A stretch of 36,779 bases of DNA from an uncultured virus (IMG/VR IMGVR_UViG_3300037010_004438) (lineage: Duplodnaviria > Heunggongvirae > Uroviricota > Caudoviricetes). Location: IMG/VR virus record IMGVR_UViG_3300037010_004438; one strand, 5' to 3'. The notes below the pieces were generated by a model that ran no database searches, had not been told where the DNA came from, and saw only the letters and a program-made list of their open reading frames with translations. This document shows, piece by piece, positions 16,433 to 36,363 of this stretch; the first letter of the stretch is position 1, and every line of letters begins with the position of its first letter. The position numbers were made by a program, and so were the translations under genes.

Positions 16433-18505
16433 ATGGCCGCATTGACGCGCGCTCTTACGATTCAGTCCGGAACCACTCGCCGCATCCAGCAAGCCCAGGT
16501 CCTCGACGTCGCCGCCGGCATCGTCGCCTCGAACGACGCGGGATCGGCGCAGGACCTCTCGATCGAAGCTGCCGTCGGCGGTTCGATCAACATCGGCACC
16601 ACCGCCGCGACCGGCACGATCAACATCGGCCAGGCCGGCGCGACCGTCAACTTCCCCGGCCTCGTCAACTTCACGTCGACCACCGCCGCGCCGAACGTCG
16701 TCTTCCAGGGAGACGTCACGATCGGCGACGCCTCGTCGGACCGCCTCTACATCAACTCCGAGGTCGGGACCGACCTCGTCTTCGCGAACGGCGCCCAGCG
16801 AGTCATCAGGATCGTGGGAAGCGCGGGCGCCGGCGACATCCTCTCCATCGCCGCGGGGTACGGCGGGACAAGCGGCGGACTGCTTGCCATGTCGGGGGGC
16901 GACGGCGCGGCTGGAGCGTCGGGCGGCTTCATGATCGGCGGCGGTGAGGCGACCGGCGGCAACGGCGGCAACGGCACCATCTGGAGCGGGTCGTCGACGA
17001 CTGGCGCTTCGGGCAACATGACGGTCGACGCGGGGGACTACGTCACGACGGGCGGCATCCTCTATCTCGGCACGACATACGCGTCGGCGGTGAACATCGG
17101 CAACAGCGGAGCGACGACCTCGATCACCGGCTCGGCGAACAGCGTCACCGGCGACACGACCTTCGCCGACGACATCTTCTTCGCCGCCGGCGTCGCGCAC
17201 GTCATCCAGGTGAACAGTGGCGCGGGTACGGGCGGAACGCTCTCGATCGCGGCCGGCGGAAGCACCACGGCGGCGGGCGGGGCGCTCTCCATCGCCGCGG
17301 GCAGCAGCGCGGTCGGCGCCGGCGCGGACGTCACGATGCGCGGCGGTCAGGGCGGCAACAACGCGGCGGGCGGCGACGTCCACCTGAAGGGAGGCCTCGC
17401 CGGCGCGGGCGTCTCGACGTACGGCAACGTCTACCTCGGCGAAGACCAGACCTCGAACGTCTACATCGGATCGGCGACCGGCGCGGGCGTCTGGATCAAC
17501 TACGGAGCCCCGGGCAACCCGCAGAAGTTCAACATCTGCTCAAGCACGCTCTCCTTCATGGGCGGAGCGACCCCGCACGAGATTATGATCGTCGACCAGG
17601 CGATCGCCGACGCGAACGGCACCAAGCTGTCCGTCGTGGCCGGCAAGGGCAACGGCCACGGCGACGGAGGCGAGCTTCGGCTCATCGGAGGCGCCGGCGT
17701 CAACGGAGGTAGCACCATCCTCCTCGGCGGCGACGCTCTCGCGGCAGGCGCGGGCGGCGCGAGCGCCGTGAAGGGCGGCGACTCGCCGAGCGGCGCGGGC
17801 GGCGACGTCTTCCTGGCGGGCGGCGAGGGCGGAGCGTCGAACGGCGTCGTCCGCATCGGGCAGGCGAGCACGAGCGCGATCAACCTCTACGCGAACACTG
17901 TCGTGCAGAGCGGCGCGACGCTGTCGGCCGCCGCGGGCGGCATGATCGACCTGCCGCAGAACTTCGAGATCGCCGGCGCGGCCACCGCGTTCTCGAACCC
18001 GGGGACCGGGCAGGTCACGGCGCCGAACCTCAACACCCTGACGGCGGGCCCGACCTCGAACGCCGACGCCCTGCACACGCACTCGGCCCTCTCGGCCGCG
18101 GTGACCGTGTCGGGAACGACGGGCGAGGTGATCGACTTCGCGGGCATGGTGCTCGCGTGGTACGACAGGGGCACGGGCCCCCTCGTCTTCAAGAGCAACG
18201 CGACGAGCGGCTCGAACTACAGGAACGCGGTCGGCCTCGCCTACGCTGCGTACGGCTCGGGCGTCACGGGGCAGGCCATCGTCGCCGGCCCGGCGACCGT
18301 TTCGATCGCGAACGTCTTCGACGGCCCGCTCTCGGCGGACGACGTCGGCAAGCCGTGCTGGATCTCGAAGACGGCGGGCAAGCTCACGCGCAACGTGAGC
18401 GGCTACACTGCGGGCGACGTCGTCCAGAAGGTCGGCATCATCACCTCGGTCGGCGGAGGCAACGCCTCGATCGCGGTCCAGGTCGGCGACGCGGTCACGC
18501 TCTGA
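16433..18505 (+). CDS. Gly-rich fibre/spike protein 1 (690 aa)
   Basis: GGx[LIV]x[LI]x[AG]G repeats; NLNTLTAGPTSNADALHTH; C-terminal QKVG domain; RBS AAGGA. Confidence 0.85.
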   Translation: MAALTRALTIQSGTTRRIQQAQVLDVAAGIVASNDAGSAQDLSIEAAVGGSINIGTTAATGTINIGQAGATVNFPGLVNFTSTTAAPNVVFQGDVTIGDASSDRLYINSEVGTDLVFANGAQRVIRIVGSAGAGDILSIAAGYGGTSGGLLAMSGGDGAAGASGGFMIGGGEATGGNGGNGTIWSGSSTTGASGNMTVDAGDYVTTGGILYLGTTYASAVNIGNSGATTSITGSANSVTGDTTFADDIFFAAGVAHVIQVNSGAGTGGTLSIAAGGSTTAAGGALSIAAGSSAVGAGADVTMRGGQGGNNAAGGDVHLKGGLAGAGVSTYGNVYLGEDQTSNVYIGSATGAGVWINYGAPGNPQKFNICSSTLSFMGGATPHEIMIVDQAIADANGTKLSVVAGKGNGHGDGGELRLIGGAGVNGGSTILLGGDALAAGAGGASAVKGGDSPSGAGGDVFLAGGEGGASNGVVRIGQASTSAINLYANTVVQSGATLSAAAGGMIDLPQNFEIAGAATAFSNPGTGQVTAPNLNTLTAGPTSNADALHTHSALSAAVTVSGTTGEVIDFAGMVLAWYDRGTGPLVFKSNATSGSNYRNAVGLAYAAYGSGVTGQAIVAGPATVSIANVFDGPLSADDVGKPCWISKTAGKLTRNVSGYTAGDVVQKVGIITSVGGGNASIAVQVGDAVTL

Positions 18506-18610: not shown

Positions 18611-21379
18611 ATGGCCGGAGCCGTCGACTACAATCTCCCGCTGACGAGTCAGCAGGGCCTCAACAAGCGCCTCCAGCCGGGCGACTACCTCACGCTCTAC
18701 TCGGGCGCGATGTCCTTCGGCGACATGAACCTCGCGGCCTCGTCCGGCATCGGCGTCAACGATCCCGGGTTTGTCGCTTCGCTCCGCGCCGGCAACGGAC
18801 AAGGGGTCGGGGACGGCGGCGCGCTCGGCCTCACGGCCGGAAACGCGGACGGCACGGGCAACGGCGGAACGATCGAGATCATTTCCGGGCGGGGCGCCGC
18901 ATCCGGCGAAGTGCACATCTACACGGCAGCGTCGAACAACGGCGCCGGCGGGGCGATCCATATCGCCGCCGGCCCCGGCGGCGGCAACAACGACGGAGGT
19001 CCCATCGAGATCCTCGCCGGCGACGGCGGGGACGGCGAACTCGGCAACCCAGGCAACGGTGGAGACCTCAGCCTCAGGAGCGGCAACGGCGGCTCCGTCC
19101 TCGGCTCCGGAGGCGACGTCGCCATCGCCGCGGGGAGCGCTTCCACGGAAGGGTCTGGAGGCAACCTCTCCCTCGCCGCCGGTTCTGGCCTCGTCGGTGG
19201 TGCGGCCGGCTCGGTCCTCGTCAACGCCGGCGATGCCGGGTCCGGCTCCGTGCAGGGCGGCGACATCGCCTTCACGGCCGGAACGGCAGGTTTGGCGGGC
19301 GGTGCCGGCGGGCACATCACGCTGCAAGCCGGCTCCTCCCCCAACGGCGTCGGAGGCGCCATCACGGTGTCGTCCGGAAAGGGCGGCCCGACGGCGCCTG
19401 GCGGCGATCTCAACCTCGCCTCCGGCAATGGCGGCCAGAAGAGCGACGGCGGCACCGCCAGCCTCACGGGAGGCCGCGGCGGACAGACTTCCGGCAACGG
19501 AGGGCGCGTCCTCCTTCACGGAGGCAACGCCCAGGGCGGCGGCAACGGCGGCGACGTCTCGGCGTACGGCGGCGTCGCCGTCGGCGCTGGCAAGGTTGCG
19601 GGAAGCCTCTTCCTCGACGCCGGGCCCTTCTCCGGCGGCGCGACGGCGGGGACGATCGGCATCGGCGGCAACTCTCTCGCGACCGCCGCGAAGGCTTCTG
19701 CCGTCTACATTGGCGACTCGGGCGCGAACGCGGTCTACCTGCAAGGCGCCGCTCCCGGCAACAATGGAGGACTCTTCATCGGCGCGAAGGCGGCCCTCTT
19801 CCTCGCCGGAGCAGCCTCCGCATACAAGTTCGGCGTGCAGGATCCGGGCTCGGGCGACGGCACGGACCTTCAGGTCTTCGCCGCCAACGGCGTCATCGGC
19901 AACGGCGCGTCGCTGTACCTTCACGGAGGCGCAACCGAGGGGGCCTTCCACGCCGGCAACGTCGTCATCGAGGCGGGAGGCGCGAAGAGCGGCGCGACGC
20001 CAGGCTTCGTGGGCGTCGCTACGGACAATGCCGCGAACGTGTACATCGGAGGCTCCGCCCACAGCACGAACCTCAAAACGATCATCCGCGGCACGCAGGT
20101 TACGACGACCGGCCATGTCGCCGAGGGCGGCGACGTCGAAATCTACGGAGGCCTCACCTCCGGCGACGGCATCACGGGCGCCATCAAGATCCAGACGCCC
20201 GACGCCTTCGCCGGTTCGAGCCAGGGAGGTACAGGACGGATCCGGATCTCCACCGGCAACGCGCAGGGAAGCGGCGCTCCTGGCGCAATCGCGCTTACGG
20301 CCGGCGATGCCGGGACACAGGGAAGCGGTGCGGGCATCTACCTCGCCGCAGGTGGAGGACGCCAGAATGGAACTGGCGGCGACATCTCCATCGCCTCGGG
20401 AGACTTCCTCGATCCGAACGGGACCGGCGGCGAGATCGACATCGTTTGCGGAGCCTCCGCAGGAGATGCGAACGGCGCGGTCCTGACCCTTCGCGCCGGC
20501 ATGGGGGCCGGCACGGGCACTGGCGGCACGTCCTACCTTCTCGGCGGAGACGGCGAATCCGCGGGCGGAGACGTCGTCATCAAGGGCGGCGCCGTCGACG
20601 CCGGCGTCAACTACGGATCCGTGTTCATCGGCGTCGACCCCTTGGGACTCGGACTCACGCAATTTGTCACCATCAACTCGACCGCCGGGACGATGCTCCA
20701 GGCGAACGAGTCCAATGCGCTGCGCGTCTGGGACGACACTGGCGTCATCAGCATCACGGTTCAAAACGGCGCCTTCCTCGCCTGCGACGTCGATGGCATG
20801 ATCAACCTGCCGCCGAACTTCATGATCGACGGCAAAAACACGAGCGTCAACGGGACTGCCGGCTCCTCGTTCACCTCCGTCGGCGTCACCGCGAACAACC
20901 TGAACGTCCTCACCCAGGGGCCGACGTCCGACGCGTCGCAGCTCCACACCCACACGGGCATCTCGGGAGCGACGAGCGTCGTCTTCGACATGACCGCGAA
21001 CGAGGCCATCGCCGTCGGTGCCCCGGTCGTCGCGTTCGACAGCGGCGGCGCGAACAACGCAAAGAACGGCAACGCGACGACGGGCGTTGCTTCGGGGGGC
21101 GACGTCGTCGGCCTCGCCTTCAGCGCTGCGGCGGGATCAGGTTCGACGTTCAAGGTGCAGACCTCGGGTGCCCTGCCGTTCTCGACCGGCATCTTCGACG
21201 TCGCCCCGTCGAACGCGAGCCGAGGCAAGCGCGTCTACTGCTCGACGACTTCCGGGAAGTTGACGCTCACGCCTCCATCGGCCGCCGGCAACTTCATCCA
21301 GAAGGTCGGCACGATCGTCTCCGTCGTCGGAGCAACCGTCACCGTGAACGTCCAGATCGGCGACCAGGTCATCCTCTGA
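18611..21379 (+). CDS. Gly-rich fibre/spike protein 2 (922 aa), paralogue of 16433
   Basis: Same Gly repeats; GMINLPPNF, NLNVLTQGPTSDASQLHTH, C-terminal QKVG domain. Confidence 0.85.
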   Translation: MAGAVDYNLPLTSQQGLNKRLQPGDYLTLYSGAMSFGDMNLAASSGIGVNDPGFVASLRAGNGQGVGDGGALGLTAGNADGTGNGGTIEIISGRGAASGEVHIYTAASNNGAGGAIHIAAGPGGGNNDGGPIEILAGDGGDGELGNPGNGGDLSLRSGNGGSVLGSGGDVAIAAGSASTEGSGGNLSLAAGSGLVGGAAGSVLVNAGDAGSGSVQGGDIAFTAGTAGLAGGAGGHITLQAGSSPNGVGGAITVSSGKGGPTAPGGDLNLASGNGGQKSDGGTASLTGGRGGQTSGNGGRVLLHGGNAQGGGNGGDVSAYGGVAVGAGKVAGSLFLDAGPFSGGATAGTIGIGGNSLATAAKASAVYIGDSGANAVYLQGAAPGNNGGLFIGAKAALFLAGAASAYKFGVQDPGSGDGTDLQVFAANGVIGNGASLYLHGGATEGAFHAGNVVIEAGGAKSGATPGFVGVATDNAANVYIGGSAHSTNLKTIIRGTQVTTTGHVAEGGDVEIYGGLTSGDGITGAIKIQTPDAFAGSSQGGTGRIRISTGNAQGSGAPGAIALTAGDAGTQGSGAGIYLAAGGGRQNGTGGDISIASGDFLDPNGTGGEIDIVCGASAGDANGAVLTLRAGMGAGTGTGGTSYLLGGDGESAGGDVVIKGGAVDAGVNYGSVFIGVDPLGLGLTQFVTINSTAGTMLQANESNALRVWDDTGVISITVQNGAFLACDVDGMINLPPNFMIDGKNTSVNGTAGSSFTSVGVTANNLNVLTQGPTSDASQLHTHTGISGATSVVFDMTANEAIAVGAPVVAFDSGGANNAKNGNATTGVASGGDVVGLAFSAAAGSGSTFKVQTSGALPFSTGIFDVAPSNASRGKRVYCSTTSGKLTLTPPSAAGNFIQKVGTIVSVVGATVTVNVQIGDQVIL

Positions 21380-24975: not shown

Positions 24976-25281
24976 ATGCCCACATGGTTCCTCGGCAGGA
25001 CCGGATACTCGTTCTTCGATGTGTGGTCGCTCGTTCACTTCGCGTTCTGGATCTTCGCCGGATCGTGTCTGTGGGCCGCGAAGCTCCGGATCGGCTACGC
25101 GCTCGCCGGATCGGTCCTGCTCGCTCTCGCGTGGGAGTGTTTCGAGCGCGTCGCGGAAAAGAAGTGGCCGGACTACTGGCTCCACCCAGAGTCCTGGTGG
25201 AACTCCTGGGCGAGCGACGTCCTCATGTGCGCCCTCGGCGTCCTTCTCATCTGGCGCCTGCTCGACGCCTATGCGAAGTAA
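24976..25281 (+). CDS. Small integral membrane protein (DUF2585-like motif)
   Basis: DVWSLVHF...LAWECFE...ESWWNSWASDVL with about 3 TM segments. Confidence 0.7.
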   Translation: MPTWFLGRTGYSFFDVWSLVHFAFWIFAGSCLWAAKLRIGYALAGSVLLALAWECFERVAEKKWPDYWLHPESWWNSWASDVLMCALGVLLIWRLLDAYAK

Positions 25282-25288
25282 GGTGGCG

Positions 25289-25765
25289 ATGTCCGTTTCC
25301 ATCGGGTTCTCGACGAAGAGGGGGAGCTTCCTCTCCTCCATCATCCGATGGGCGACCGGCTCGAAGGTCAGTCACATCTGGATCCTCTCGGACATCTTCG
25401 GCGTGCCGTGCGTCGTCGAGGCCTCCGAGAAGGGATTTTTCCCGTCCTCGTCTCTCGCTCGCTTCGAGAAGGACAACGAGGTCGTGTTCCTCTTCCCTGT
25501 CGAGCACGACCTCTCCGAAGGGCTCAGGTGGGCCGCAAACCACTTCGGCGAGCGCTACGACTTCGCAGGCCTCTTCGGTATGATCCGCGTCCTTCTCGGC
25601 CGCCTCTTCCACAGGAGGTGGAAGAACCCGTGGAACAACCGCAAGGCGCTCTTCTGCGCAGAGGCCATCGCCGAAGTGCTCAAGCGAAGCGCCTACCCAA
25701 AGTCGGAGGCTCTCCGCCCAGCGGACGTCGGTCCGGAGGACATCCGCAAGTTCCTGTCCGAATGA
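25289..25765 (+). CDS. Permuted papain-like amidase (YiiX/YebB, C92-like)
   Basis: IIRWATGSKVSHIWI, VVEA, GERYDF, LFCAEAIA, P near the C-terminus; His precedes Cys. Confidence 0.8.
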   Translation: MSVSIGFSTKRGSFLSSIIRWATGSKVSHIWILSDIFGVPCVVEASEKGFFPSSSLARFEKDNEVVFLFPVEHDLSEGLRWAANHFGERYDFAGLFGMIRVLLGRLFHRRWKNPWNNRKALFCAEAIAEVLKRSAYPKSEALRPADVGPEDIRKFLSE

Positions 25766-25868
25766 GCGTCTCGACTTACCAGAAGTCGAAGAGCTTGCTA
25801 CTCTACATTGGAAGCGTCCGTCTGCTTTCGCGCCCGTTCAAGACTGCCACCGCTTCTCGGAGCTGCCC

Positions 25869-27407
25869 ATGTCCGTCGTCCCTTACCCCGGGTTTCTCTT
25901 CGTCGACACCATCTGCGAGCTGGCGGGCGCCGACGTCACGAAGCTCAATCAGGGATGCCTCGCGTACGTCGGCAATGAAGACGCATACTTCCGTCTCACG
26001 GCAAAGACGCCTCCCGTCTCCCCGAACGGCGTCGACGTCATCTCCGTCCCAGGAGGGCCGCAGACGCCCGGATGTCCGCCCGCCACGACCGGCGCGGACG
26101 TTCGTCGCTGGATTCTCACGAACATCGCCGACGCCATCGGAACGAGCGCAAACTCGCTCGCATGGTACGTGAATGCCGTCAGTGGAAACGACGCGAACAT
26201 CGGCACCGATCCGCTCTTCCCGGTGAAGACCGTCCGCGAGGTCGGCGAACGTTGGGAGCGCGGGGCCGGGTATAACACCGCCGGCGCCGTGCACGTCTAC
26301 ATCCAGAGCGATCACCTCCTGCCGACTGACACGATCCTCGTCAAGCGCCCTGTCGTGAACGGCAACCCCATCATCTTCCACGGGACGCGCGCGAGCGGCT
26401 CTCCTCCGATCAGTCCTCCCATCGTCTCCGCGACCGACATCCACCGCCCGAACAACCAGATCGTCACCCTCGCGTTCGCAGGGCCCGCCCTCCCCGCCAT
26501 CGGTAGCTACATCCACATCCTCTCAGGACCGCTCGCCGGCTACTGGGCGCGCATCGCCAAGGCCGATCCGACGAACGCGCTCGCGCGCGACTGCACCCCA
26601 TTCGTCATCCAGCCGAACCCCTCCGACGCGCAGCTCACGATCGCGTCCTCCGTCTCCGCAAACGTTCCGGGTGCGAGCTACGAGATTCTCCACGCCGGAT
26701 GCTCCATCCCGGAAACCTTCGTCATCGACATCGACCCGCTCGCGGAGGTCTGGTTCTACGACGTCAAGGTCCAAAACCCTGGCGTTCCCCCGAACCCATT
26801 CTACCAGCCGATCATCAAGAGCGGAGCCGTCCGCTTCTTCCGTTCGGAGGGAGACACGGGCTCGCCCGCTACGTTCATCATCGCCTCCGCGGGCTCGATC
26901 TACTTCTCCGGGTCGACCTCGGAAGGGTTCGTCATCCACTCCGTCGGCGAGCAAGTCGAATTCGACGCCTCCTACGCGGACCTTCCCCAGAACTGCGTCC
27001 TCAAGGCTCTGACCCTGAAGAACGACACTCTCGTCTCGCCGGCGTGGAGCGTCCGAACCGAAGACGGGCAGCTCTGCATCCTTCGCGACGTCGCCGTCAA
27101 CGGAAACGGTCCTCAGCCGACGTTCTTCGTGGGCAACGCCATCCTGAAGATCGACGGAGCCCTCTACGGCAAGGACAACATCGCGCCCATCCTCAAGCTT
27201 CGGCGCTGGGCCCGGGGGTCGTACGCCGACCAAGCCTCGCTCACGATCGCCAAGGCTGGAGGAGCTGCCTATAGCGGCGAGATCGATTTCGGCCTCCCTG
27301 CGCCGATGAAGACCTTCGACGCCATCGACATCCCCTTCGTGTCCATCGCCACGGGCAACTCTTCGCAAGCAGGGCTCATCGAGGCAGACGCTCCGTCACC
27401 TCCCTGA
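25869..27407 (+). CDS. Spike-like protein with pectin-lyase/beta-helix-associated motif
   Basis: WYVNAVSGNDANIGTDPLFPVKTV (DUF1565-type motif) followed by a beta-rich region. Confidence 0.7.
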   Translation: MSVVPYPGFLFVDTICELAGADVTKLNQGCLAYVGNEDAYFRLTAKTPPVSPNGVDVISVPGGPQTPGCPPATTGADVRRWILTNIADAIGTSANSLAWYVNAVSGNDANIGTDPLFPVKTVREVGERWERGAGYNTAGAVHVYIQSDHLLPTDTILVKRPVVNGNPIIFHGTRASGSPPISPPIVSATDIHRPNNQIVTLAFAGPALPAIGSYIHILSGPLAGYWARIAKADPTNALARDCTPFVIQPNPSDAQLTIASSVSANVPGASYEILHAGCSIPETFVIDIDPLAEVWFYDVKVQNPGVPPNPFYQPIIKSGAVRFFRSEGDTGSPATFIIASAGSIYFSGSTSEGFVIHSVGEQVEFDASYADLPQNCVLKALTLKNDTLVSPAWSVRTEDGQLCILRDVAVNGNGPQPTFFVGNAILKIDGALYGKDNIAPILKLRRWARGSYADQASLTIAKAGGAAYSGEIDFGLPAPMKTFDAIDIPFVSIATGNSSQAGLIEADAPSPP

Positions 27408-27867: not shown

Positions 27868-28134
27868 ATGGGCGACGAATACAACGATTTCAAACGAGGG
27901 TTTCTGTTTCAGAAGCCCAAATGCAAAGAATGCAAGAAGAGAGACCGCGTTCCGTGCCCCGAAGAGCGCAGCCGCGCGATCCTTGAGCGACTCGACGCCC
28001 GAGCGAAGGACCCCTCCGCCCTCACCCGCGCGGAGGTCGACCTGCTCAAAGTGCAGCGCGCGCACGCGGAGAAGGTGAAGAAGGGCGACTACTGCGCGAT
28101 CTGCATCGAGAAGATCGATCTTTGGGTTCGGTGA
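27868..28134 (+). CDS. Small Zn-finger-like protein, probably leaderless
   Basis: CKEC...C...CAIC; TGATAGCCT ends 6 nt before the ATG. Confidence 0.7.
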   Translation: MGDEYNDFKRGFLFQKPKCKECKKRDRVPCPEERSRAILERLDARAKDPSALTRAEVDLLKVQRAHAEKVKKGDYCAICIEKIDLWVR

Positions 28135-28424
28135 ACGCGCGCCTTCGCGCTACGATAGGCGTCGTGACGACACGACCCTCCCCGACTGCCGCGATCGGGC
28201 AGTGGAAGAAGTGCGAACGAGAAGGCTGCGACGAGGTCTTTCTCGTCAAGCCGCGCAACGCTCGCCAGAAGTACCACGATCGTTCTTGCGGCGACGCGGT
28301 ACGCAAGCGCTGGCTTCAACCGAGCCGCCAGCGATACATGCGCGAGTACATGGCGGGCTACATCCGCCTTGCAGAGCCCGCCGAATCAGACGCGCCCGAA
28401 GCAGAAGCCCGCAAGAGCGCATAA
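28131..28424 (+). CDS. Small putative Zn-finger DNA-binding protein
   Basis: GTGA overlap; CEREGC...KYHDRSC followed by a basic helix. Confidence 0.6.
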   Translation: MNARLRATIGVVTTRPSPTAAIGQWKKCEREGCDEVFLVKPRNARQKYHDRSCGDAVRKRWLQPSRQRYMREYMAGYIRLAEPAESDAPEAEARKSA

Positions 28425-28463
28425 GTGCCCCCCGACTTTCCATAAGCCAGCAGGAAAAAGCCC

Positions 28464-31268
28464 ATGCTCGCGCGCCGTGCTCGCTACGTCCCCATCCATC
28501 CCTACGTCATCACTCCCACCGCAACGGCCGGATTTCTTGAGGGCCTCATCCATGCCGCGGAAGGGGCCGTGAGCGGCGCTATCCATGCCGTGGAAGGGGC
28601 CGCGAGCGACGTTGTCCACTGGACCGAGGGGGCTGCCGACGACTTCGGCAAAGCCGTCGGAGACGTTGGGCACTGGATCGGCGAAGGCGCCAAAGACATC
28701 GGCGGCTACATCGCCGACGGCGCCAAATGGGTCGGCAACGGCGTCGGCGACGCCGCCAAATGGGTCTACGAACACGACCCCATCATGCAGCTCGCGTCCA
28801 AGGTCGCGAGCGGCGAAAACGTCTGGCAGGCGCTCAAGGAAACGGGCGCCATCGTCACCGAGGACGTCAAAATCTTCGGGCCGTACGTCGCCTACATCCC
28901 AGGCATCGGGACTGCGGCTGCCATGGCCATCGCCGCCGGCGTCGCGCTCGCGAACGGAAAGCGCCTCGACGAAATCGCTCTCGATGCGGCGCGCGGCGCC
29001 CTTCCTCCCGGCCCTGCGCTCATCGCCTTCGACGCCGCCAATGCGCTCGTACGCGGCAAGGGCATCACCGACTCCGCGCTCGCGGGCCTCAAAGGGGTTC
29101 TTCCGGAGGAAATGGGGGGCGCCGTCGACGCAGCCATCTCCATCGTCAAGGGAGGCAACGTCACCGAGGCCGCGCTCCGCGCGGCGCGCGGCGCTCTCCC
29201 CGAAGAGGCGCAGGGCGTCTTCGATGCGGCCGTTTCCGTCGCCAAAGGAGGTAGCGTCACCGACGCCGCACTCTCCGCCGTCCGCGGCGTTCTGCCCGAG
29301 GAGGCGCTCGCTGCGTACGACACGGGCGTCGCTCTCGCGAAGGGCAAGCGCGTTCAAGACGCGATCTCCGATGGCCTCCGCGGTTATCTTCCTCCGGAGT
29401 ACCAAGAGGTCTTCGATGCCGCGCGCGACATCGCGAACGGCAAGAACGTCCTCGACGTCGCCATCAAAGAAGCAAAGGCCCACCTCCCGCCCGAGGCACA
29501 AGCAGCCGCCGACGCCGCCATTACGATCGCCAAGGGAGGCAAGGTGCAGGACACCCTGCTCTCCGCCGCCCGCATCGCCGTCCCTGGCGAGTATGTGCGC
29601 TACTTCGACATGGCGACGGGCCTTCTCCACATGGACAAGAGCAAGGCCGTCGCCGAGGTCATGGCGCAGATCCCTCCCGGGACCCCGGTCGCCGAAGCCT
29701 ACGAAATGGCGAAGAGGATCCAGAAAGAGGGCGTCGCAGGCGCCTCGCATGCAGCGGACGCCGCAAGCCTCTTCAAAGGCCTGGACAAGAGCTTTGCGAT
29801 GGGGTTCGTCGCAAACCTCAGAGCCTCCGTTCACGGAGGCGACCCCTCCACAGCCGCTACTGGCGCCCCCTCCACAGCCGCTACTGGCGCCCCCTCCACA
29901 GCCGCTACTGGCGTCCCCTCCACGGCCGCTACTGGCGCCAGCGCCTACGTGAACGTCGCTCTCGATCTCGCCATCGAAGAGCTTCGCAAGCAGCTTCCTA
30001 GCGATCCGATGGCCGTCGCCGCCTTCGACGCCGCCGTCGACATCGTGAGAGGAAAGAGCATCGAGGACATCGCCTCCGAAGTCGCAAAGCAATACGTGCC
30101 GAAGGAGTACAAGGACAAGGTCGAGACCGCTGTCAAGGCCGTCGACTCCGCCATTCACGGAGGCAACGTCGGCGACGTCGCCATCGAAGCTCTGAAGGGA
30201 CAGCTTCCTCCCGAGCTTAGCGGATACGTCGATCTCGGCGTCGGGATCGTGAAAGGCGAAAAGACGCAGGACGCCGCGATCGCTGCCGCCAAGGCCGCCC
30301 TTCCGAAGGAGCTTTCGAGCGCGTTCAACGCGGCCATGGGCATCGTGAGCGGCGACTACCGCGACGCTCTCAAGAGCGCCGTCGCAGGACAGATGCCGGA
30401 GGGTCTGCCCCTGCAGGACGCCTACTCGAAGGCCCTCGAACTCGGACAGGGTCTCTTCCCTGCCGACGTCATCGCGTCGGCGAGAGCTTCGCTCGGAAGC
30501 GATGCGCTCCGCGACGCATTCGACAAGATCGCACTCCTCGCCAAGGGCAAGGCCATCCAAGAGATCGCGACCGATCTCATCAAGGGGTACATCCCTCCGG
30601 AGGCCAAAGACGCCTACATGAAGGCCGCGACCATCGCCGATCACGCGAACCCGAGCGAGGTCGCGATGGGCGTCGTTCGTGCGCAGCTCCCGCCCTCCGC
30701 GCAGCATGCCGTCGACGGTGCTACTGCCATCTTCAAGGGCAAGGCTCCTGAAGAGATCGCCAACGACGAACTGGTCAAGGGCGCCATCGCTCGCACGCTC
30801 GCACTCAAGCGTGCGGCCGGCGAAATTCCTCCCGCCCCCGTCCACCTCATCGACGGCTCGAAGATCGCCCAAGGCGGACTTCGCGCCGCGGGCATTGCTG
30901 CCGCGGCCCAGTCCTCGAAAACGTCCTTCGCCAAGGTCGCCGGAATGATGGACGCGTCGAACGTCCTCGCCTTCAGCGACGGGGTCAAGAACTTCGTCAA
31001 GAACATGCAGGACGACGCTCGCATCTTCGAGCAAGCCATCGACGACATCGCGATTCGGCGCGCGTCGCTCGGCGCCTCCAACCCCTACACGGGCCCCGCG
31101 TTCGACCCGGCTTTCCAAAAACTCGTCGACCAAAAGACCGCGGAATACGCGCCGAAACCCTCACCCTCACCCTCGCCCTCCGCAACCCCACTCCTCGTCT
31201 TCGGAGGCGCCGCCGTCGCCGCCGCATCGGGCTATCTTCTCTGGAAGAAGCATCTCAAAAAAGCGTGA
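28464..31268 (+). CDS. 934-aa Ala-rich helical-repeat protein with amphipathic N-region and C-terminal TM anchor
   Basis: 11-mer amphipathic repeats, ~32-aa LPxE...DAA...KG repeats, PSTAATGA x4, C-terminal VFGGAAVAAASGYLLWKK. Confidence 0.9.
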   Translation: MLARRARYVPIHPYVITPTATAGFLEGLIHAAEGAVSGAIHAVEGAASDVVHWTEGAADDFGKAVGDVGHWIGEGAKDIGGYIADGAKWVGNGVGDAAKWVYEHDPIMQLASKVASGENVWQALKETGAIVTEDVKIFGPYVAYIPGIGTAAAMAIAAGVALANGKRLDEIALDAARGALPPGPALIAFDAANALVRGKGITDSALAGLKGVLPEEMGGAVDAAISIVKGGNVTEAALRAARGALPEEAQGVFDAAVSVAKGGSVTDAALSAVRGVLPEEALAAYDTGVALAKGKRVQDAISDGLRGYLPPEYQEVFDAARDIANGKNVLDVAIKEAKAHLPPEAQAAADAAITIAKGGKVQDTLLSAARIAVPGEYVRYFDMATGLLHMDKSKAVAEVMAQIPPGTPVAEAYEMAKRIQKEGVAGASHAADAASLFKGLDKSFAMGFVANLRASVHGGDPSTAATGAPSTAATGAPSTAATGVPSTAATGASAYVNVALDLAIEELRKQLPSDPMAVAAFDAAVDIVRGKSIEDIASEVAKQYVPKEYKDKVETAVKAVDSAIHGGNVGDVAIEALKGQLPPELSGYVDLGVGIVKGEKTQDAAIAAAKAALPKELSSAFNAAMGIVSGDYRDALKSAVAGQMPEGLPLQDAYSKALELGQGLFPADVIASARASLGSDALRDAFDKIALLAKGKAIQEIATDLIKGYIPPEAKDAYMKAATIADHANPSEVAMGVVRAQLPPSAQHAVDGATAIFKGKAPEEIANDELVKGAIARTLALKRAAGEIPPAPVHLIDGSKIAQGGLRAAGIAAAAQSSKTSFAKVAGMMDASNVLAFSDGVKNFVKNMQDDARIFEQAIDDIAIRRASLGASNPYTGPAFDPAFQKLVDQKTAEYAPKPSPSPSPSATPLLVFGGAAVAAASGYLLWKKHLKKA
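29844..29939 (+). repeat. 4 x 24-nt in-frame tandem repeat encoding PSTAATG[AV]
   Basis: CCCTCCACAGCCGCTACTGGCGCC at 29844, 29868, 29892, 29916 with 0-1 mismatch each. Confidence 0.95.
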
Positions 31269-31717: not shown

Positions 31718-32140
31718 ATGACCCTCCGGATGAAGCAGAACCTCCTCGCTGCCGCGCCGCTCATCTTCTCGATCCTGGTCAGCGGAGCGGCACTCGCGGC
31801 GACCCCCGGATGCGTCAACGGCAGCGCCGGCAAGACGGTGCAGACCGTCCTCGACGTCGGCGACGCGGTCTGCGACGCGCTCTCGGCGAACGACGTCGAG
31901 AACGACGACGTTCAGCTCGTCTGCAAGTACATGAACCAAGTCGACGGACTCGCGCACGTCTTCATTGCGAAGATTCCGGCGACGCAGGCCGCCAAGATGG
32001 GCATCAAGACCCCAAAGACGCTCGCGATGACGGCGCCCGCTCCTTCAGCGACCGCCTCCGCATCTGCGTCCGCACCGCCCGCGTCGTCCGCTCCGCCGAC
32101 GAGCGCTCCTTCCACGAAGCCGTCGAGCGGAAAGAAGTAG
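31718..32140 (+). CDS. Secreted or membrane protein with Pro/Ser/Ala tail
   Basis: RBS AAGGA; hydrophobic N-terminus LLAAAPLIFSILVSGAALA; three Cys. Confidence 0.75.
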   Translation: MTLRMKQNLLAAAPLIFSILVSGAALAATPGCVNGSAGKTVQTVLDVGDAVCDALSANDVENDDVQLVCKYMNQVDGLAHVFIAKIPATQAAKMGIKTPKTLAMTAPAPSATASASASAPPASSAPPTSAPSTKPSSGKK

Positions 32141-32268
32141 TCTCTGATCGCCGCCGCAATCGGCGCCGATGAGAAGGCTTCATGAGCGGCGCCCGACCAA
32201 GAGCGCCTAAGAACGCCGACCGAGAACGCCGAAAGGCGCTGAAGACCTCGAAGCCTCACGGAGAACCC

Positions 32269-33402
32269 ATGGCCTGCCTCAACCCCAACTGCCGCACCAA
32301 CAAGCACACGGGCGTTTGCCGCGCCGGCGAAGCGCAGGCTCCGCTGCCGATCGCGCCCGCCCAGCTCGTCCCCGCGCCCGCGATGTCACGCCCCGTCGAG
32401 GCTACCCTCGGAAGGTACGACGCCGTGCTCGCCGAAACTGCCCCGGCCGAGGCTGCGCGCCCCGATCGTCTGCGTCCTCGTCGCCCAGGCCCCGAACAGT
32501 CCCCGTCGGCGATGCAGCTGATGGAGGAGCGCTTCCAGCGCGAACGCGAAGGGCTCCTCGCCCAGATCCGCGCACTCAACGAACAGCTCAGCGCCGAGAC
32601 CTCGCGCCGCCGCGCCGCGGAGCAGCGTCCCGAGAGCTGCCCCGAATGCGCGCCGCAGCAGGCGTGCCCTCCGCCCGAACCGTGTCCCGTGTGCCCCTCC
32701 TGCGGAACGCCGCAGGCCGAAGTTCCCTCGATGGGACCCGCGCACATCATCAATCCCTCCGTCATCGGACGTTTCATCGGCGAGGCGGTCGGACCCGTCT
32801 ACACCGAAAGTCCTTCGGAGTCGAACACGATCGCGGGGCCGGGAGCGGGCGCTGCAGCGGCTGCCCCCTACACGCAGGACACTCAAACGACCGCTTCCGA
32901 TCCTCCGAACTATTCCGTCGCTGCGGCTCCGAACCATCAAGCGCTCGCGGCTACCCCCTACACGCAGGACGCTCGGACGACCGCTTCCGATCCTCCGAAC
33001 TATTCCGTCGCTGCGGCTCCGAACCATCAAGCGCTCGCGGCTGCGGCCGTTCGGCCAGGCGTTCGCATAGCCGTGAACAACCCCGCCCTCCGCGCCGCCC
33101 TCGCGGCGAAGCTTCCCCCTCCGACCAGCGGTATCCAGGGCAACTGCAAGAACTGCGGCAACGCCGTCTCCGTCGGGCGCGGCATCGACGCTGCAGTCGG
33201 GGCCTACCAATGCCCCCACTGCGGCTACGCTCACGTCGGGGCGCCGCGCTTCGTCCCCTCGCCCGCGTGCTCGGACTCTCGCGTCCGCAGGGTCGTGAAG
33301 CAGTACCGCACGAAGCTCCTCTCTCTCGCCCAGGCGAAGAACATCCTCTCGCGCAAGTTCAACCTCTCGCCCGCCGACGTGGCCTACTGCCTGTCGCGCT
33401 GA
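32269..33402 (+). CDS. Cys/Pro-rich protein with coiled coil, CPxC cluster and Zn ribbon
   Basis: RBS GGAG, MACLNPNC; CPEC..CP..CPVCPSC; CKNC...CPHC; internal 30-aa duplication. Confidence 0.8.
   Translation: MACLNPNCRTNKHTGVCRAGEAQAPLPIAPAQLVPAPAMSRPVEATLGRYDAVLAETAPAEAARPDRLRPRRPGPEQSPSAMQLMEERFQREREGLLAQIRALNEQLSAETSRRRAAEQRPESCPECAPQQACPPPEPCPVCPSCGTPQAEVPSMGPAHIINPSVIGRFIGEAVGPVYTESPSESNTIAGPGAGAAAAAPYTQDTQTTASDPPNYSVAAAPNHQALAATPYTQDARTTASDPPNYSVAAAPNHQALAAAAVRPGVRIAVNNPALRAALAAKLPPPTSGIQGNCKNCGNAVSVGRGIDAAVGAYQCPHCGYAHVGAPRFVPSPACSDSRVRRVVKQYRTKLLSLAQAKNILSRKFNLSPADVAYCLSR
32857..33042 (+). repeat. 90-nt in-frame tandem duplication
   Basis: Two near-identical copies encoding PYTQDxxTTASDPPNYSVAAAPNHQALAA. 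Confidence 0.95.
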
Positions 33403-33912: not shown

Positions 33913-34758
33913 ATGGAAAAGAAGACTGCAATGATCCTGGGAGGCGCCGCGGTCGCGGGCCTCGGACTCTATCTCTGGCAGAAGAGCAAGACCGCCAGCG
34001 CCGCAACGCCGCAAAAGCCTGCGGGCGCGGACGTGCAGTCGCCGCGACTCGGAACTCCCACCGTCCCGGTTTCGCCAAATCCGACTGCGTCGGCTCCGAC
34101 GGATCCGATCGTGACCAAACCGGCAGCGTCGGCTCCGACGGATCCGGCCGTGACCAAGCCGGCGATCCCTTCGCCGACAGCGTCGGCTCCGACGGTTCCG
34201 GTCGTGACCGTGCCGACACCGACGCCGGCCGCAACCGTCCCGGCACCGGCCGGAGTCTCCTTCAACGAGATGACGCCCGACGGAAAGCTCCAGCTCTGGA
34301 CCGCCGTCACCAAGGGCACGCTGAAGACGGACACCTCGAACTCGAACTTCTACGTCTACGACGCCACGCCCGCGAAGACGCTCGACGAGTCCGGATCGAT
34401 GATCCTGATGCAGCGCAACGACGCCCAGGGAGGCGACGCCCTGTACATCCTCGCCTCCGTCTCCAACTCCGAGGCCCCGGTCTTCTGGGCCGCCGCCGAA
34501 AGCGACGCGGTCGCGATGGCGTCCGGGCCCAGCGCCGCGTGGACGGTCTTCCTTCGACCGAACGAGTGGCGAACGATGGCCGAGAACGCGTGGTCGGCAG
34601 GACAGACGTCTCCGTCGGGCTCGACGTCCTCCGTCCCTTCCACGGGCAGCCCCGCCCTCGACCAGTTCGGCCAAGGGTTGCAGGGTCAGCTCTCGCAGGC
34701 GGCTTCTCAGGCGGACCTGCCGAGCAACTCCTTCAACCTGGGCTCGTTCAAGCTCTGA
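33913..34758 (+). CDS. N-anchored protein, WxxFLRPxE family member 1
   Basis: RBS GAGGA; MEKKTAMILGGAAVAGLGLYLWQK; Pro/Thr linker with three ASAPT repeats; WTVFLRPNE. Confidence 0.85.
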   Translation: MEKKTAMILGGAAVAGLGLYLWQKSKTASAATPQKPAGADVQSPRLGTPTVPVSPNPTASAPTDPIVTKPAASAPTDPAVTKPAIPSPTASAPTVPVVTVPTPTPAATVPAPAGVSFNEMTPDGKLQLWTAVTKGTLKTDTSNSNFYVYDATPAKTLDESGSMILMQRNDAQGGDALYILASVSNSEAPVFWAAAESDAVAMASGPSAAWTVFLRPNEWRTMAENAWSAGQTSPSGSTSSVPSTGSPALDQFGQGLQGQLSQAASQADLPSNSFNLGSFKL

Positions 34759-34777: not shown

Positions 34778-35371
34778 GTGAAACCCTCGACCGCCTTCTG
34801 GATCGGAAGTGCTGCGTTCGTGGGCCTTCTCCTTACGGTCCGAAGGAGTGCCGCCGCGACCGCGACGGCCTCCTCTCCCAGCGCGCTCCGACCCTCTTCA
34901 GGAAGCGAACGCTCCGACTCCGAGGTGAGCGCCGACGAGTTCGAAGAAATCCTTCCTGAAGAGAAGATGCGCGCCTGGATGTCGCTCTACTCCGTGAAGC
35001 TCGTTCCCGCGTCCTTTTCGCAAGCGTCTTTCTCGCAAGCGTCCGTGCGCGGCGCGCCCATGAGCGACAAAATCGACAAGCCCGTCACCGAAGCGCCGCT
35101 CGCCGTCGCGAAGCTCGACGAAGGCGCCAAGATCGAAGACACGGGCGCCTACCTCCTCGCGAAAAAGAACATGAACATGCGAGGGAAGCACTACATCCTC
35201 ACGCAGGCTTCGCCGAACGGCATCTTCTTCTGGCCGACGAACGTCGAAGACGCGGAGAAGTACGCGTCGCCAGGGGGCAACTGGAAGCTCTTTCTCCGCC
35301 CCGACGAGGCGTGGGATCTCATCCGAGCTGCCGGCCCTGCCTATACGATGAACGTCCCCGTCCTCGAATGA
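34778..35371 (+). CDS. N-anchored protein, WxxFLRPxE family member 2
   Basis: GTG start; N-terminal TM; WKLFLRPDE. Confidence 0.8.
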   Translation: MKPSTAFWIGSAAFVGLLLTVRRSAAATATASSPSALRPSSGSERSDSEVSADEFEEILPEEKMRAWMSLYSVKLVPASFSQASFSQASVRGAPMSDKIDKPVTEAPLAVAKLDEGAKIEDTGAYLLAKKNMNMRGKHYILTQASPNGIFFWPTNVEDAEKYASPGGNWKLFLRPDEAWDLIRAAGPAYTMNVPVLE

Positions 35372-35397: not shown

Positions 35398-36363
35398 ATG
35401 TCCTCGAAAGCGCCCGTCATTCTCGGAGGCCTCGCGATCGCAGGCGTCGCCGCCTACTTCCTGACGAGGAAGACGGCCGCCAAGACCGCGTCCGCTTCCG
35501 CGCCTCCCACGTCCACTTCCGCGCCTCCCGCGTCGAAACCTCAGACCGCGACCAAGTCCATTCCGAAGGTCGAAAACCCGACCGAATGGACCCCTCCCGT
35601 CGGCTACCCGAAACTTCCTTCTGGCTGGCAGCTTCCCACCTCCATCGTACCTCCTGCCGGCTGGATTCCGCCCATCAACTGGCAGGCCCCGGCCTGGATC
35701 GAGGCGCTCGGTTGGAAGGCTGGGCAGCCCATCCCCGGCATCGTTCTGCCTGCCCCCGCCGTCGCCCCCGGGACTCCGACCGTGCAAGCCATCGCGCCCG
35801 GCCCGCGCGGCGCGGTCCCCGTCCAGCGCGCCTACAAGCTCGGGTTCGACGACGGACAGCCGGCCGCATGGGGGCTTCCTGGCGTGCCGTTCTCTCTGCC
35901 CAACATCAGCTCCGTACTTCCGGGCGTCGTCGCCATGACGCCGACGGAAGCCGAAGAGCCTCGTGAAATGGGCGAGGACGACAAGTTCGCGCTGTGGAAG
36001 TCCCTCTTCCACAACGTCTCAAACGTCCTCGACTACTGCTACGACCCGGCCGGCGGGTGCATGCAGGCGCACGCGATGATCGGAGAGGCGCGCAAAGAAG
36101 ACGACAAGCGCGTCGTCATGGCCCAGGACATCGCCAACCTCAACGACTCGACCCCTCCCCGGGACAACTACGACAACCCGGGATGGATGGTGCTCTACTC
36201 CCCGTCGACCGAGGTCTTCTGGCTCCTCGAAGAAAAGCCCGCCCTCGAAGCGGTCAAGAAAGATGACTGGGTCATCTTCCTGCGCCCGAACGAGTACCAC
36301 AAGATGCAGGAACGAGGAGGTCCCGACTACACCGTGCCGGACGACCTGCCCGCCGCCTCCTGA
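35398..36363 (+). CDS. N-anchored protein, WxxFLRPxE family member 3
   Basis: RBS AAGGA; MSSKAPVILGGLAIAGVAAYFLTRK; Pro/Trp-rich linker; WVIFLRPNE. Confidence 0.85.
   Translation: MSSKAPVILGGLAIAGVAAYFLTRKTAAKTASASAPPTSTSAPPASKPQTATKSIPKVENPTEWTPPVGYPKLPSGWQLPTSIVPPAGWIPPINWQAPAWIEALGWKAGQPIPGIVLPAPAVAPGTPTVQAIAPGPRGAVPVQRAYKLGFDDGQPAAWGLPGVPFSLPNISSVLPGVVAMTPTEAEEPREMGEDDKFALWKSLFHNVSNVLDYCYDPAGGCMQAHAMIGEARKEDDKRVVMAQDIANLNDSTPPRDNYDNPGWMVLYSPSTEVFWLLEEKPALEAVKKDDWVIFLRPNEYHKMQERGGPDYTVPDDLPAAS

Follow-up and report, generated by a model that had tools for sequence, protein, structure and literature searches.

A helical-repeat protein of an uncultured phage represents an undescribed family linked to the bacterial cell envelope

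Introduction

What does a phage do with a long, almost wholly helical protein that carries membrane-type segments and that the sequence libraries do not name? The question is raised by a 36,779-nucleotide stretch of DNA from an uncultured virus of the Caudoviricetes (IMG/VR record IMGVR_UViG_3300037010_004438), hereafter the window, in which an open reading frame (ORF) at positions 28464-31268 of the plus strand, stop codon included, encodes a protein of 934 residues that we call P0001. An earlier note on this DNA had proposed a membrane-penetration or DNA-delivery protein that a protease activates, in the manner of adenovirus protein VI. We find that P0001 is probably a membrane-active helical envelope protein, and that its family is undescribed. 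It is the phage representative of a family that is unnamed in the libraries and comprises at least 929 clusters at 50% identity, in which a Gly/Ala-zipper core followed by 32-residue hairpin repeats is repeatedly joined to peptidoglycan-binding or peptidoglycan-cutting domains that lack an export signal. The role proposed in the earlier note survives in its general outline, which agrees with the membrane-type features, the envelope-linked family and the adjoining fibre and spike genes, whereas the specifics modelled on protein VI do not.

Results

P0001 is the product of a genuine and conserved gene

The ORF begins with ATG and is both genuine and conserved. Its GC content at codon positions 1, 2 and 3 (0.69, 0.49 and 0.80) is typical of a genuine gene in a window of 64% GC, the sequence AGGA lies 8 nt 5' of the start codon, the N-terminus can be aligned with those of relatives, and some of these relatives are full-length. 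The gene call of the earlier note is therefore correct, and the antisense ORF at 28386-31133 is the usual high-GC shadow of P0001. Six full-length relatives were found in metagenomes, with identities of 33-48%, and one further relative in an IMG/VR record. Together with P0001 they span 741-934 residues and differ by whole repeats and linkers. A scan with the alignment of the close relatives yielded three short loci only in metagenomes and no match among genome contigs.

Searches with P0001 itself gave nothing significant in Pfam (best match TPR_16, E 0.053) or PHROGs (best E 0.28) and no match among the NCBIfam and PADLOC models. No match to P0001 was found by tblastn in 50,697 phage records, nor was there one in these records by megablast with window positions 12000-36779.

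A Gly/Ala-zipper core defines a large unnamed family

A profile of seven proteins retrieved 929 representatives at E≤1e-3, 520 of them at E≤1e-10, from a set of 1.84 billion cluster representatives (clusters at 50% identity). Members are 240-1305 residues long, and most matches among the top 150 listed of the 929 cover the core and the first repeats only. Nothing in Pfam, PHROGs, NCBIfam, PADLOC, PDB or BFVD matches the family.

The family-defining core of P0001, delineated by invariant alignment columns and by the profile matches, comprises residues 104-166 (28773-28961, plus strand). A helix with the sequence HDP..Q..K..GENVW is followed by an FGPY.AYIPG turn and then by the Gly/Ala-zipper helix, and in the close relatives the invariant residues continue from the turn as FGPY.AYIPG.GTAA.M..AAG.ALA.GK. 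The hydrophobic helix (IPGIGTAAAMAIAAGVALANG; residues 145-165, 28896-28958, plus strand) has a small residue at every second position. Its Kyte-Doolittle mean over 19 residues (KD19) reaches a maximum of 1.81 at residues 145-163, and the hydrophobic segment that the earlier note had picked out is thus present. Of 155 family members, 73 have a KD19 of at least 1.6 at this helix (median of the 155, 1.57), and the run without charged residues that encloses it has a median length of 30 residues. Being weakly hydrophobic and rich in Gly and Ala, IPGIGTAAAMAIAAGVALANG has the character of a holin or signal-arrest-release (SAR) type helix. Its second half is also matched, weakly (independent E-value, i-E, 0.08), by the profile of the 32-residue repeat as a repeat end. 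The segment reads as a degenerate first copy of that repeat, and according to the alignments it is the part that this large, unannotated family has conserved as its core.

The same alignments define a family module made up of an amphipathic stretch, a G(E/Q)(N/R)(V/I) helix, the Gly/Ala helix and a varying number of repeats. The Gly/Ala helix follows the motif AP(Y/F).Q.V..(V/I)PG.GTG..AA..AG.ALA.G.PI, and each repeat copy the motif LPGG/LPPE..A..AFD.A...AKG.

Family members are joined to domains that bind or cut peptidoglycan

Pfam wall domains are present in 6 of the 75 representatives scanned, with PG_binding_1 in five and OmpA, LysM and Amidase_2 in one each. Of the remaining representatives, 67 are without a Pfam domain and two have a sub-threshold B_lectin. 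One additional member combines GH25 with PG_binding_1, and one cluster mate, from the metagenome-assembled genome of a member of the Acidobacteriota, is named N-acetylmuramoyl-L-alanine amidase. A signal peptide is absent from the family members read. As judged from these fusions and from the neighbouring genes described below, which likewise bind or cut peptidoglycan, the family is associated with the cell envelope.

A separate observation concerns the member P0021, which has an acidic N-terminus and then about 40 residues of nearly pure Arg and Lys before its amphipathic stretch and core, and which shares a basic, beta-type C-terminal domain with P0036, P0040 and P0059. Going by its composition, P0021 looks like a nucleic-acid-binding or packaged-protein variant.

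Relatives occur in other viral loci and in a bacterial island

Two scans added ten IMG/VR contigs, each of which encodes one shorter member of 278-626 residues; the genes on these contigs were called by a heuristic based on GC content at third codon positions, and some of the contigs may be misclassified cellular DNA. Eight other viral loci were examined, and in six of them a same-strand neighbour has a Phage_lysozyme2, SLT or PG_binding_1 domain. The neighbour is of the Phage_lysozyme2 type at L060, an SLT transglycosylase at L067 and L068, and of the PG_binding_1 type at L063, L064 and L071, the last of which also has a transglycosylase, while L061 and L062 have no wall-enzyme neighbour. A beta-helix tailspike is also encoded at L063, a collagen fibre of 1814 residues at L061, and integrases at L060 and L061. 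As a gene order, this pattern would fit a tail-tip or ejection module and a lysis cassette at the end of a late operon equally well.

A scan with the bacterial subfamily yielded 44 loci (L002-L045, for example L024:100-10927) in Acidobacteriota, Verrucomicrobiota, Caballeronia, Rhizobium, Methylocapsa, Bradyrhizobium, Polyangia and others. Here two to four family paralogues lie in an island without tail genes. Their partners are a protein of about 450 residues with an invariant HExxH, which is a putative metalloprotease (28 of 44 loci), a Trp-rich protein of about 650 residues (27 of 44) and an aminotransferase-like protein (19 of 44), and a sigma-54 (PspF-like) activator is encoded nearby in 13 of the 44. 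The island is conserved in its gene content and is unannotated. Profiles of the ~450-residue and ~650-residue proteins had no match among PDB sequences at E≤1, and neither protein had a PADLOC match. Homologues of the island partners were found neither in the window nor in the viral and metagenome loci L057-L071; the related phage genome G001, described below, was not searched with these profiles.

Phage and island proteins retrieve each other reciprocally by profile and have a common core module, consisting of the GxNV helix, the PGxGTG Gly/Ala helix and LPGG..AFD..KG repeats. Of 34 island proteins, 28 carry an acidic motif, EELDxFLG, and so do 25 of the 155 representatives, where about one would be expected. 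The motif lies mostly some 45-115 residues (range 3-116) before the core. P0001 has the sequence G-F-L-E-G 75 residues before its core, without the acidic run of EELDxFLG. The larger island paralogues carry EELDxFLG together with wall-binding or wall-cutting domains and are without a signal peptide.

Predicted hairpin repeats lead to a C-terminal transmembrane helix

Beyond the core, P0001 consists largely of repeats. A profile of the 32-residue repeat, built from five copies, found 12 copies at i-E<0.01, seven of them outside the building set, as well as two weaker ones, and none in 20 shuffles. The two blocks of helical repeats of about 32 residues described in the earlier note are confirmed by this profile. 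The first block (residues 171-383; 28974-29612, plus strand) contains seven helix-turn-helix repeats, seen both by the profile and as helices in the AlphaFold2 (AF2) models, with the consensus ..A+G.LPpEa...FDAA..IAKG..v.D. The second (residues 500-760; 29961-30743, plus strand) has five copies at i-E<0.01 and one weaker copy at residues 533-557. The repeat skeleton, LP..(E/Y)...FD..A...KG, is conserved in the relatives. A 96-bp duplication (x 2.0) at 29117-29307 gives P0001 one extra repeat that the relatives are without.

The blocks are separated by a linker of low confidence (residues 424-496; 29733-29951, plus strand), with a predicted local distance difference test score (pLDDT) below 50, which is absent or shorter in the relatives. 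The low-complexity repeat that the earlier note had read here as four copies of PSTAATG does exist, but its unit is of eight residues, not seven: GAPSTAAT occurs 4.2 times, encoded by a 24-bp DNA repeat (x 4.2, 94% matches) at nt 29838-29939. Comparison with the relatives shows that the GAPSTAAT run, like the extra 32-residue repeat, is recent and specific to the window. A linker repeat that expanded so lately, and in the window alone, gives no sign of a conserved split, and the suggestion that the protein is divided in two at this point is not sustained.

Towards the C-terminus, alignments reveal a conserved region (residues 840-895; 30981-31148, plus strand) in which A863, R865, R866, L869, G870 and N873 are invariant, forming an A.RR..LG..N motif. 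It is followed by a Pro/Ser linker (residues 896-907), a transmembrane helix (residues 908-928) and a basic tail, KHLKKA (together 31149-31265, plus strand). The KD19 of the helix reaches 1.57 at residues 908-926, and a transmembrane helix with a Lys/Arg tail is kept in 8 of 8 close relatives listed, in agreement with the C-terminal membrane segment of the earlier note. A C-terminal hydrophobic tail is present in 17 of the 155 family members.

The full-length AF2 model, computed from 10 sequences, is all-helical but poor, with a pLDDT of 54.1 and a predicted TM-score (pTM) of 0.30, too low for a fold search, and the second repeat block is its best-modelled portion. A model of residues 100-420 from 114 sequences reached a pLDDT of 74.0 and a pTM of 0.35 and contains one helix hairpin per repeat; its least confident position is the IPGIGT turn. 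With a conserved Pro/Gly turn at intervals of 16 residues, the repeats are predicted to form hairpins and not one long coiled coil. Foldseek searches with the model of residues 100-420 gave a best E of 0.17 against PDB and of 0.40 against BFVD, where rows to podovirus ejection-type proteins were non-significant (E 0.7-1.6). The best hit of a VIA-align wide search with the same residues was to a designed helical repeat protein, with a Z of 6.5 that is below the meaningful level for helical repeats. All fold matches are to generic alpha-solenoids or designed repeat proteins, and a four-copy complex prediction of residues 100-234, with a score of 0.00, gave no verdict either way.

An acidic amphipathic stretch precedes the core

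The N-terminus of P0001 carries a motif that is recognisable in alignments (M..R.RY.PIHPY ... G23-aromatic; residues 1-23, 28464-28532, plus strand). P13 and the G23 that precedes an aromatic residue are nearly invariant in a 10-sequence alignment of close relatives. The leader ending in TATAG of the earlier note is present in the sequence, but TATAG itself is not conserved among the relatives, which keep only the G23-aromatic pair. Residues 1-23 contain no hydrophobic core of a signal peptide. A twin-arginine translocation (Tat) signal was ruled out, as the twin Arg is not conserved, and so was a lipobox, and with it the idea of a unimolecular spanin, as the N-terminus has no Cys.

From F24-L-E-G onwards, residues 24-105 (28533-28778, plus strand) form an acidic amphipathic stretch rich in His, Gly and Ala. 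The 11-residue periodicity seen by the earlier note is borne out, with an identity autocorrelation of 0.38 at lag 11 compared to about 0.03-0.12 at most other lags; lags 7, 18, 22 and 29 give lesser peaks of about 0.18-0.27. The hydrophobic moment of all 82 residues, taken at 98.2 degrees, is high, at 0.388 versus 0.079 +/- 0.041 in 2000 shuffles (z 7.5), and the best 22-residue window has a moment of 0.58 at 100 degrees. The low moment that the earlier note had named as a refutation of its proposal is not observed. The stretch contains 8 Asp, 6 Glu, 4 Lys, 5 His and no Arg, giving a net charge of -10. A DNA tandem repeat of 33 bp (x 2.7, 77%) at 28677-28766 underlies part of it, and the stretch is thus partly the product of a recent duplication. 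It is entirely missing in the relatives P0006 and P0007 and different in the remaining ones; its amphipathic signal has z≤0 in 4 of 6 close relatives and z>3 in one of the six. A Pfam search of P0001 at E≤1 gave no homology to apolipoprotein, synuclein or protein VI. Family-wide, an amphipathic stretch just before the core recurs, with z>3 in 48 and z>2 in 89 of 151 members, and in bacterial members it is usually Lys-rich. It is a recurrent, non-universal family trait.

Within residues 24-60 (28533-28640) we also observed His and Glu three residues apart, with the pair repeated 11 residues on (H-A-A-E, H-A-V-E, H-W-T-E). On a helix these pairs would share one face, a possible metal- or pH-sensing feature.

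The window is part of a divergent jumbo phage genome

One window protein is recorded on a contig of 160,779 bp, and 24 of the 38 window proteins are matched by tblastn (E≤1e-5) within 141-197 kb of G001, a linear IMG/VR record of 202,518 bp with 65% GC and a CheckV completeness of 94%; the order of the matches is mostly that of the window. The window is thus one piece of a larger genome, that of a very divergent jumbo phage of some 160-200 kb. Neither direct nor inverted terminal repeats were found. G001 encodes a deoxynucleoside monophosphate kinase, RtcB, thymidylate-synthase-like proteins, a helicase, a single-stranded DNA-binding protein, an exonuclease, a sigma factor, endolysins and a spanin. 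PHROGs recognised no terminase, portal, major capsid or sheath among 142 of its ORFs, and a six-frame search with Pfam Terminase_6N, Phage_sheath_1 and Phage_capsid gave no match at E≤0.1. On this gene content G001 is a very divergent jumbo phage whose host is Gram-negative, and the structural module of the lineage can in effect not be annotated by sequence. Each phage genome has a single member of the P0001 family.

Upstream of P0001, the window encodes a collagen and laminin-G fibre (14354-15427; Pfam and PHROGs) and two Gly/Ala-rich paralogues of 690 residues (16433-18505) and 922 residues (18611-21379). These have a common C-terminal domain (..QKVG.I.SV....V.VQ.GD.V.L) and no match in PHROGs or Pfam, and look like beta-helical fibres. 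A Trp-rich multi-pass membrane protein of 101 residues (24976-25281), encoded between the genes for proteins of 276 and 512 residues, is 72% identical to its G001 counterpart. The 512-residue protein (25869-27407, plus strand) resembles a right-handed beta-helix in its Atlas model, and the nearest structure clusters are Beta_helix/pectate-lyase-like, with TM-scores of 0.45-0.49 that serve as a lead only; as a lead, the protein is tailspike- or depolymerase-like. Two Arg-rich, low-complexity ORFs of odd composition, at 25348-26172, where it overlaps the frame of the 512-residue gene, and at 31810-32172, are probably not genes.

One small opposite-strand gene separates the 512-residue gene from two Zn-finger ORFs, which lie directly upstream of P0001. 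The first encodes a CxxC..CxxC ribbon (27868-28134, plus strand) and the second a zf-CGNR protein (28122-28424, plus strand; Pfam E 1.1e-5, with 25.6 bits where the cut-off is 24). The zf-CGNR-like segment is also found upstream in G001 and as an N-terminal extension of the relative P0007, so its pairing with the P0001 family is conserved. The two ORFs overlap in a -1 arrangement, and no canonical XXXYYYZ slippery heptamer was seen in the overlap. A tail-assembly chaperone-frameshift pair was ruled out here, these ORFs being Zn-finger proteins without such a heptamer.

Downstream, proteins of 115, 406 and 161 residues precede three paralogues, and no function could be assigned to any of these genes. 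The 406-residue protein (32182-33402) is of a Zn-ribbon/coiled-coil type, with several CxxC pairs and two near-identical repeats of about 30 residues (APYTQD..TTASDPPNYSVAAAPNHQALAA), and a search of the protein collection yielded only its own sequence. The three paralogues (33913-34758, 34778-35371 and 35398-36363, plus strand), identified by sequence comparison, have an N-terminal transmembrane helix (for example ILGGAAVAGLGLYLWQKSK) that resembles the C-terminal one of P0001, a Pro/Thr linker and a C-terminal domain ending in W.(I/L/V)FLRP(N/D)E. They have no family match, and the one at 35398-36363 is conserved in G001. No protease gene was recognised among the proteins of the window or of G001.

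Discussion

With the architecture, conservation, family membership and cell-wall-domain link of P0001 established as above, we infer its topology, membrane insertion and site of action as follows. The reading we favour, with moderate confidence, is that P0001 forms a helical rod which is anchored in the membrane, crosses the periplasm and does its work at the host cell wall. Judging by the Lys-rich tail, the Pro/Ser linker and the similarly anchored neighbours, the protein would sit in the inner membrane and keep its C-terminus on the inner side. With the C-terminus inside, the repeat rod would be periplasmic and the weakly hydrophobic Gly/Ala-zipper helix (residues 145-165) would be the membrane-inserting element that makes the first passage. 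Both hydrophobic helices would then be embedded in the inner membrane of the host, leaving the two termini in the cytoplasm, and a rod of about 740 residues, made up of some 13-15 helix-turn-helix repeats in two blocks with a floppy linker between them, would project into the periplasm, reach the peptidoglycan layer and work there. The wall-binding and wall-cutting domains in or beside the relatives agree with a rod acting at peptidoglycan.

Two versions share the probability that we give to this rod. Possibly, P0001 is made and inserted in the infected cell together with the three paralogues, for egress, lysis control, envelope remodelling or exclusion. Somewhat more doubtfully, and by analogy with ejection and tape-measure proteins, it would arrive with the virion and enter the membrane from outside, as one component of a conduit for DNA.

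Several observations weigh against the periplasmic rod. The zipper helix is borderline hydrophobic, with a KD19 below 1.6 in 82 of the 155 members, and could simply be a buried solenoid helix. P0001 has no signal peptide, its acidic stretch would be a poor fit for binding to an anionic bacterial membrane, and the global confidence of both models is low by their pTM values. The wall domains lie N-terminal to the core in P0024, P0031 and P0061 and C-terminal to it in P0014, P0042, P0043 and P0051, and one fixed single-pass topology cannot explain both. The sole recognisable lysis gene of the window, for an Rz-like spanin (1973-2443), is 26 kb from P0001. No head, tail-tube, sheath or terminase gene was recognised near P0001 or in G001, and the virion context of the protein is therefore weak.

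Some of these points would be accommodated by a soluble helical-repeat scaffold without a membrane role, in which the Gly/Ala helix is buried and a cytoplasmic or virion adaptor, which might bind cell-wall fragments or partner proteins, is tethered only by its C-terminal helix. The yield of generic solenoids from the fold searches, and the alignment of the borderline hydrophobic zipper helix as a repeat tail, speak for such a scaffold, and wall domains on either side of the core are most easily explained by a single compartment, as for signal-less endolysins. We nevertheless consider it unlikely, given that the 30-residue uncharged run is kept as the most invariant part of the family, that amphipathic stretches recur just upstream of the core, that the C-terminal transmembrane helix is present in all close relatives, with a hydrophobic tail in the 17 family members mentioned above, and that the neighbours are membrane-anchored paralogues.

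A canonical tape-measure protein, which fills the tail lumen, sets tail length and is expelled so that its hydrophobic segments enter the membrane, is improbable. Much of the general appearance of P0001 would suit one: its 934 residues are predicted to be almost wholly helical, its relatives vary in length by whole repeats and linkers, it occurs once per phage genome close to fibre and spike genes, it has hydrophobic segments of the glycine-zipper type, as reported for prophage tape-measure proteins (PMC10240207), and its family, like many tape-measure proteins, has fusions to wall hydrolases. However, no tape-measure model of Pfam or PHROGs is among the matches even at E≤1, so that the homology which the earlier note had named as decisive against its own proposal was not found. 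The ORFs directly upstream encode Zn-finger proteins rather than a chaperone pair and show no slippery heptamer, and no tube, sheath or hub gene was recognised nearby. The Pro/Gly turns at every 16 residues predict hairpins rather than a coiled coil, the relatives occur as several paralogues in bacterial islands without tail genes, and the C-terminal transmembrane helix, basic tail and Pro/Ser linker resemble an ordinary membrane anchor.

A bolder proposal, to which we likewise assign a low probability, is that the core and repeats constitute a self-inserting, membrane-breaching module that is common to jumbo and temperate phages and to sigma-54-associated islands, that carries signal-less proteins, including wall hydrolases, into or across the inner membrane, and that is activated by cleavage. 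An upstream mask (EELDxFLG in bacteria, G-F-L-E-G after the N-terminal motif in the phage) may keep the amphipathic helix inert, and release may come about through processing, by the HExxH enzyme of the island in bacteria and by another enzyme in the phage. The 934-residue protein may then be the giant, periplasm-spanning form of a new envelope-breaching class. Such a module would revive the idea of activation by cleavage on a different footing.

In its original form that idea, a lytic factor like adenovirus protein VI in which a viral protease removes the 23-residue leader to expose an 11-mer helix that ruptures the membrane, with a possible second cut at PSTAATG, is very improbable: the coherent hydrophobic moment, the nearly invariant G23-aromatic pair, the F24-L-E-G placed 75 residues before the core as EELDxFLG is upstream of the core in bacterial relatives, and the putative HExxH metalloprotease of the islands favour it, but the stretch has a net charge of -10, loses its amphipathic signal in most close relatives and is gone in two of them, is partly a recent duplication, and has no homologue among protein VI, the apolipoproteins and synuclein, the repeat in the linker is confined to the window, no protease was recognised in the window or G001 and no homologue of the island protease in the viral loci searched (window, L057-L071), and T-A-T-A-G|F is without the Met, Ile or Leu at P4 of the adenoviral protease consensus. 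No sign of the protease-cleaved leader of the earlier note was found, and the membrane-anchored periplasmic rod remains the reading that we prefer.

If the core module does move signal-less domains into the membrane or across it, there would be a new explanation of how wall enzymes without a signal, and the DNA conduits of phages, cross the inner membrane. The module would also offer a handle on a jumbo-phage lineage without a recognisable terminase or capsid and on a widespread, sigma-54-associated bacterial island. Should P0001 be merely an anchored helical scaffold, the family would still provide a useful new domain definition, of modest interest.

Comparison with known systems

Two systems were invoked by the earlier note for the N-terminal part of P0001. 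Adenovirus protein VI differs in that P0001 has no homology to it and no cleavage machinery was found. With the 11-mers of apolipoproteins and alpha-synuclein, the stretch at residues 24-105 has in common an 11-residue period and a coherent hydrophobic moment on a 3-11 helix. Class A 11-mers carry basic residues at the interface between the polar and non-polar faces. The P0001 stretch is unlike these, being acidic, without Arg and not flanked by Lys; it also has no homology to these proteins and is not conserved in close relatives, so that a lipid-binding 11-mer of their type is not supported.

Holin and SAR-endolysin cassettes are similar to the P0001 family in their weak, Gly/Ala-rich helix and in the association with signal-less wall hydrolases. 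Unlike holins, P0001 is far larger, at 934 residues, and lies outside a lysis cassette in the window. The proteins of the sigma-54-associated islands have the same core module as P0001; what distinguishes them is the set of HExxH, ~650-residue and aminotransferase-like partners, absent from the viral loci searched.

Tape-measure proteins, of which lambda gpH, TP901-1 TMP and T5 pb2 are examples, are like P0001 long, nearly all helical, varied in length by repeats, provided with hydrophobic or glycine-zipper segments and present once per genome, and they are often fused to peptidoglycan hydrolases, as is the P0001 family. P0001 differs from them in the absence of profile homology and of an upstream chaperone pair, in its hairpin repeats, in its C-terminal transmembrane helix with a basic tail and in its bacterial-island relatives.

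The ejection or internal core proteins of podoviruses (P22 gp7/gp20/gp16, T7 gp14-16 and the phiKMV type with a lysozyme) form a helical conduit that spans the periplasm and works with a wall hydrolase, and their genes lie beside those for tailspikes or fibres. The shorter viral relatives of P0001 show such a gene order too, with wall-enzyme neighbours that could equally be parts of lysis cassettes. In the window a beta-helix-like protein is encoded upstream, as a lead only, and no hydrolase nearby. P0001 has no PHROGs homology to ejection proteins, and its best Foldseek match in BFVD has an E of 0.4.

Glycine-zipper transmembrane motifs are reported to drive membrane permeabilisation and translocation in the type VI secretion system effector Tde1 and are also found in tape-measure proteins of Burkholderia prophages (PMC10240207). 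The Tde1 and prophage motif has in common with P0001 a run of small-xxx-small residues over a weakly hydrophobic helix, beside domains that cross or breach a membrane. The zipper of P0001 differs from that of Tde1 in being Ala-rich, internal and followed by 32-residue repeats, and the two are likened by description rather than by a sequence comparison. By analogy, P0001 would be functionally closest to tape-measure and ejection proteins and to glycine-zipper translocation segments, and by the tests run it is a member of none of these three.

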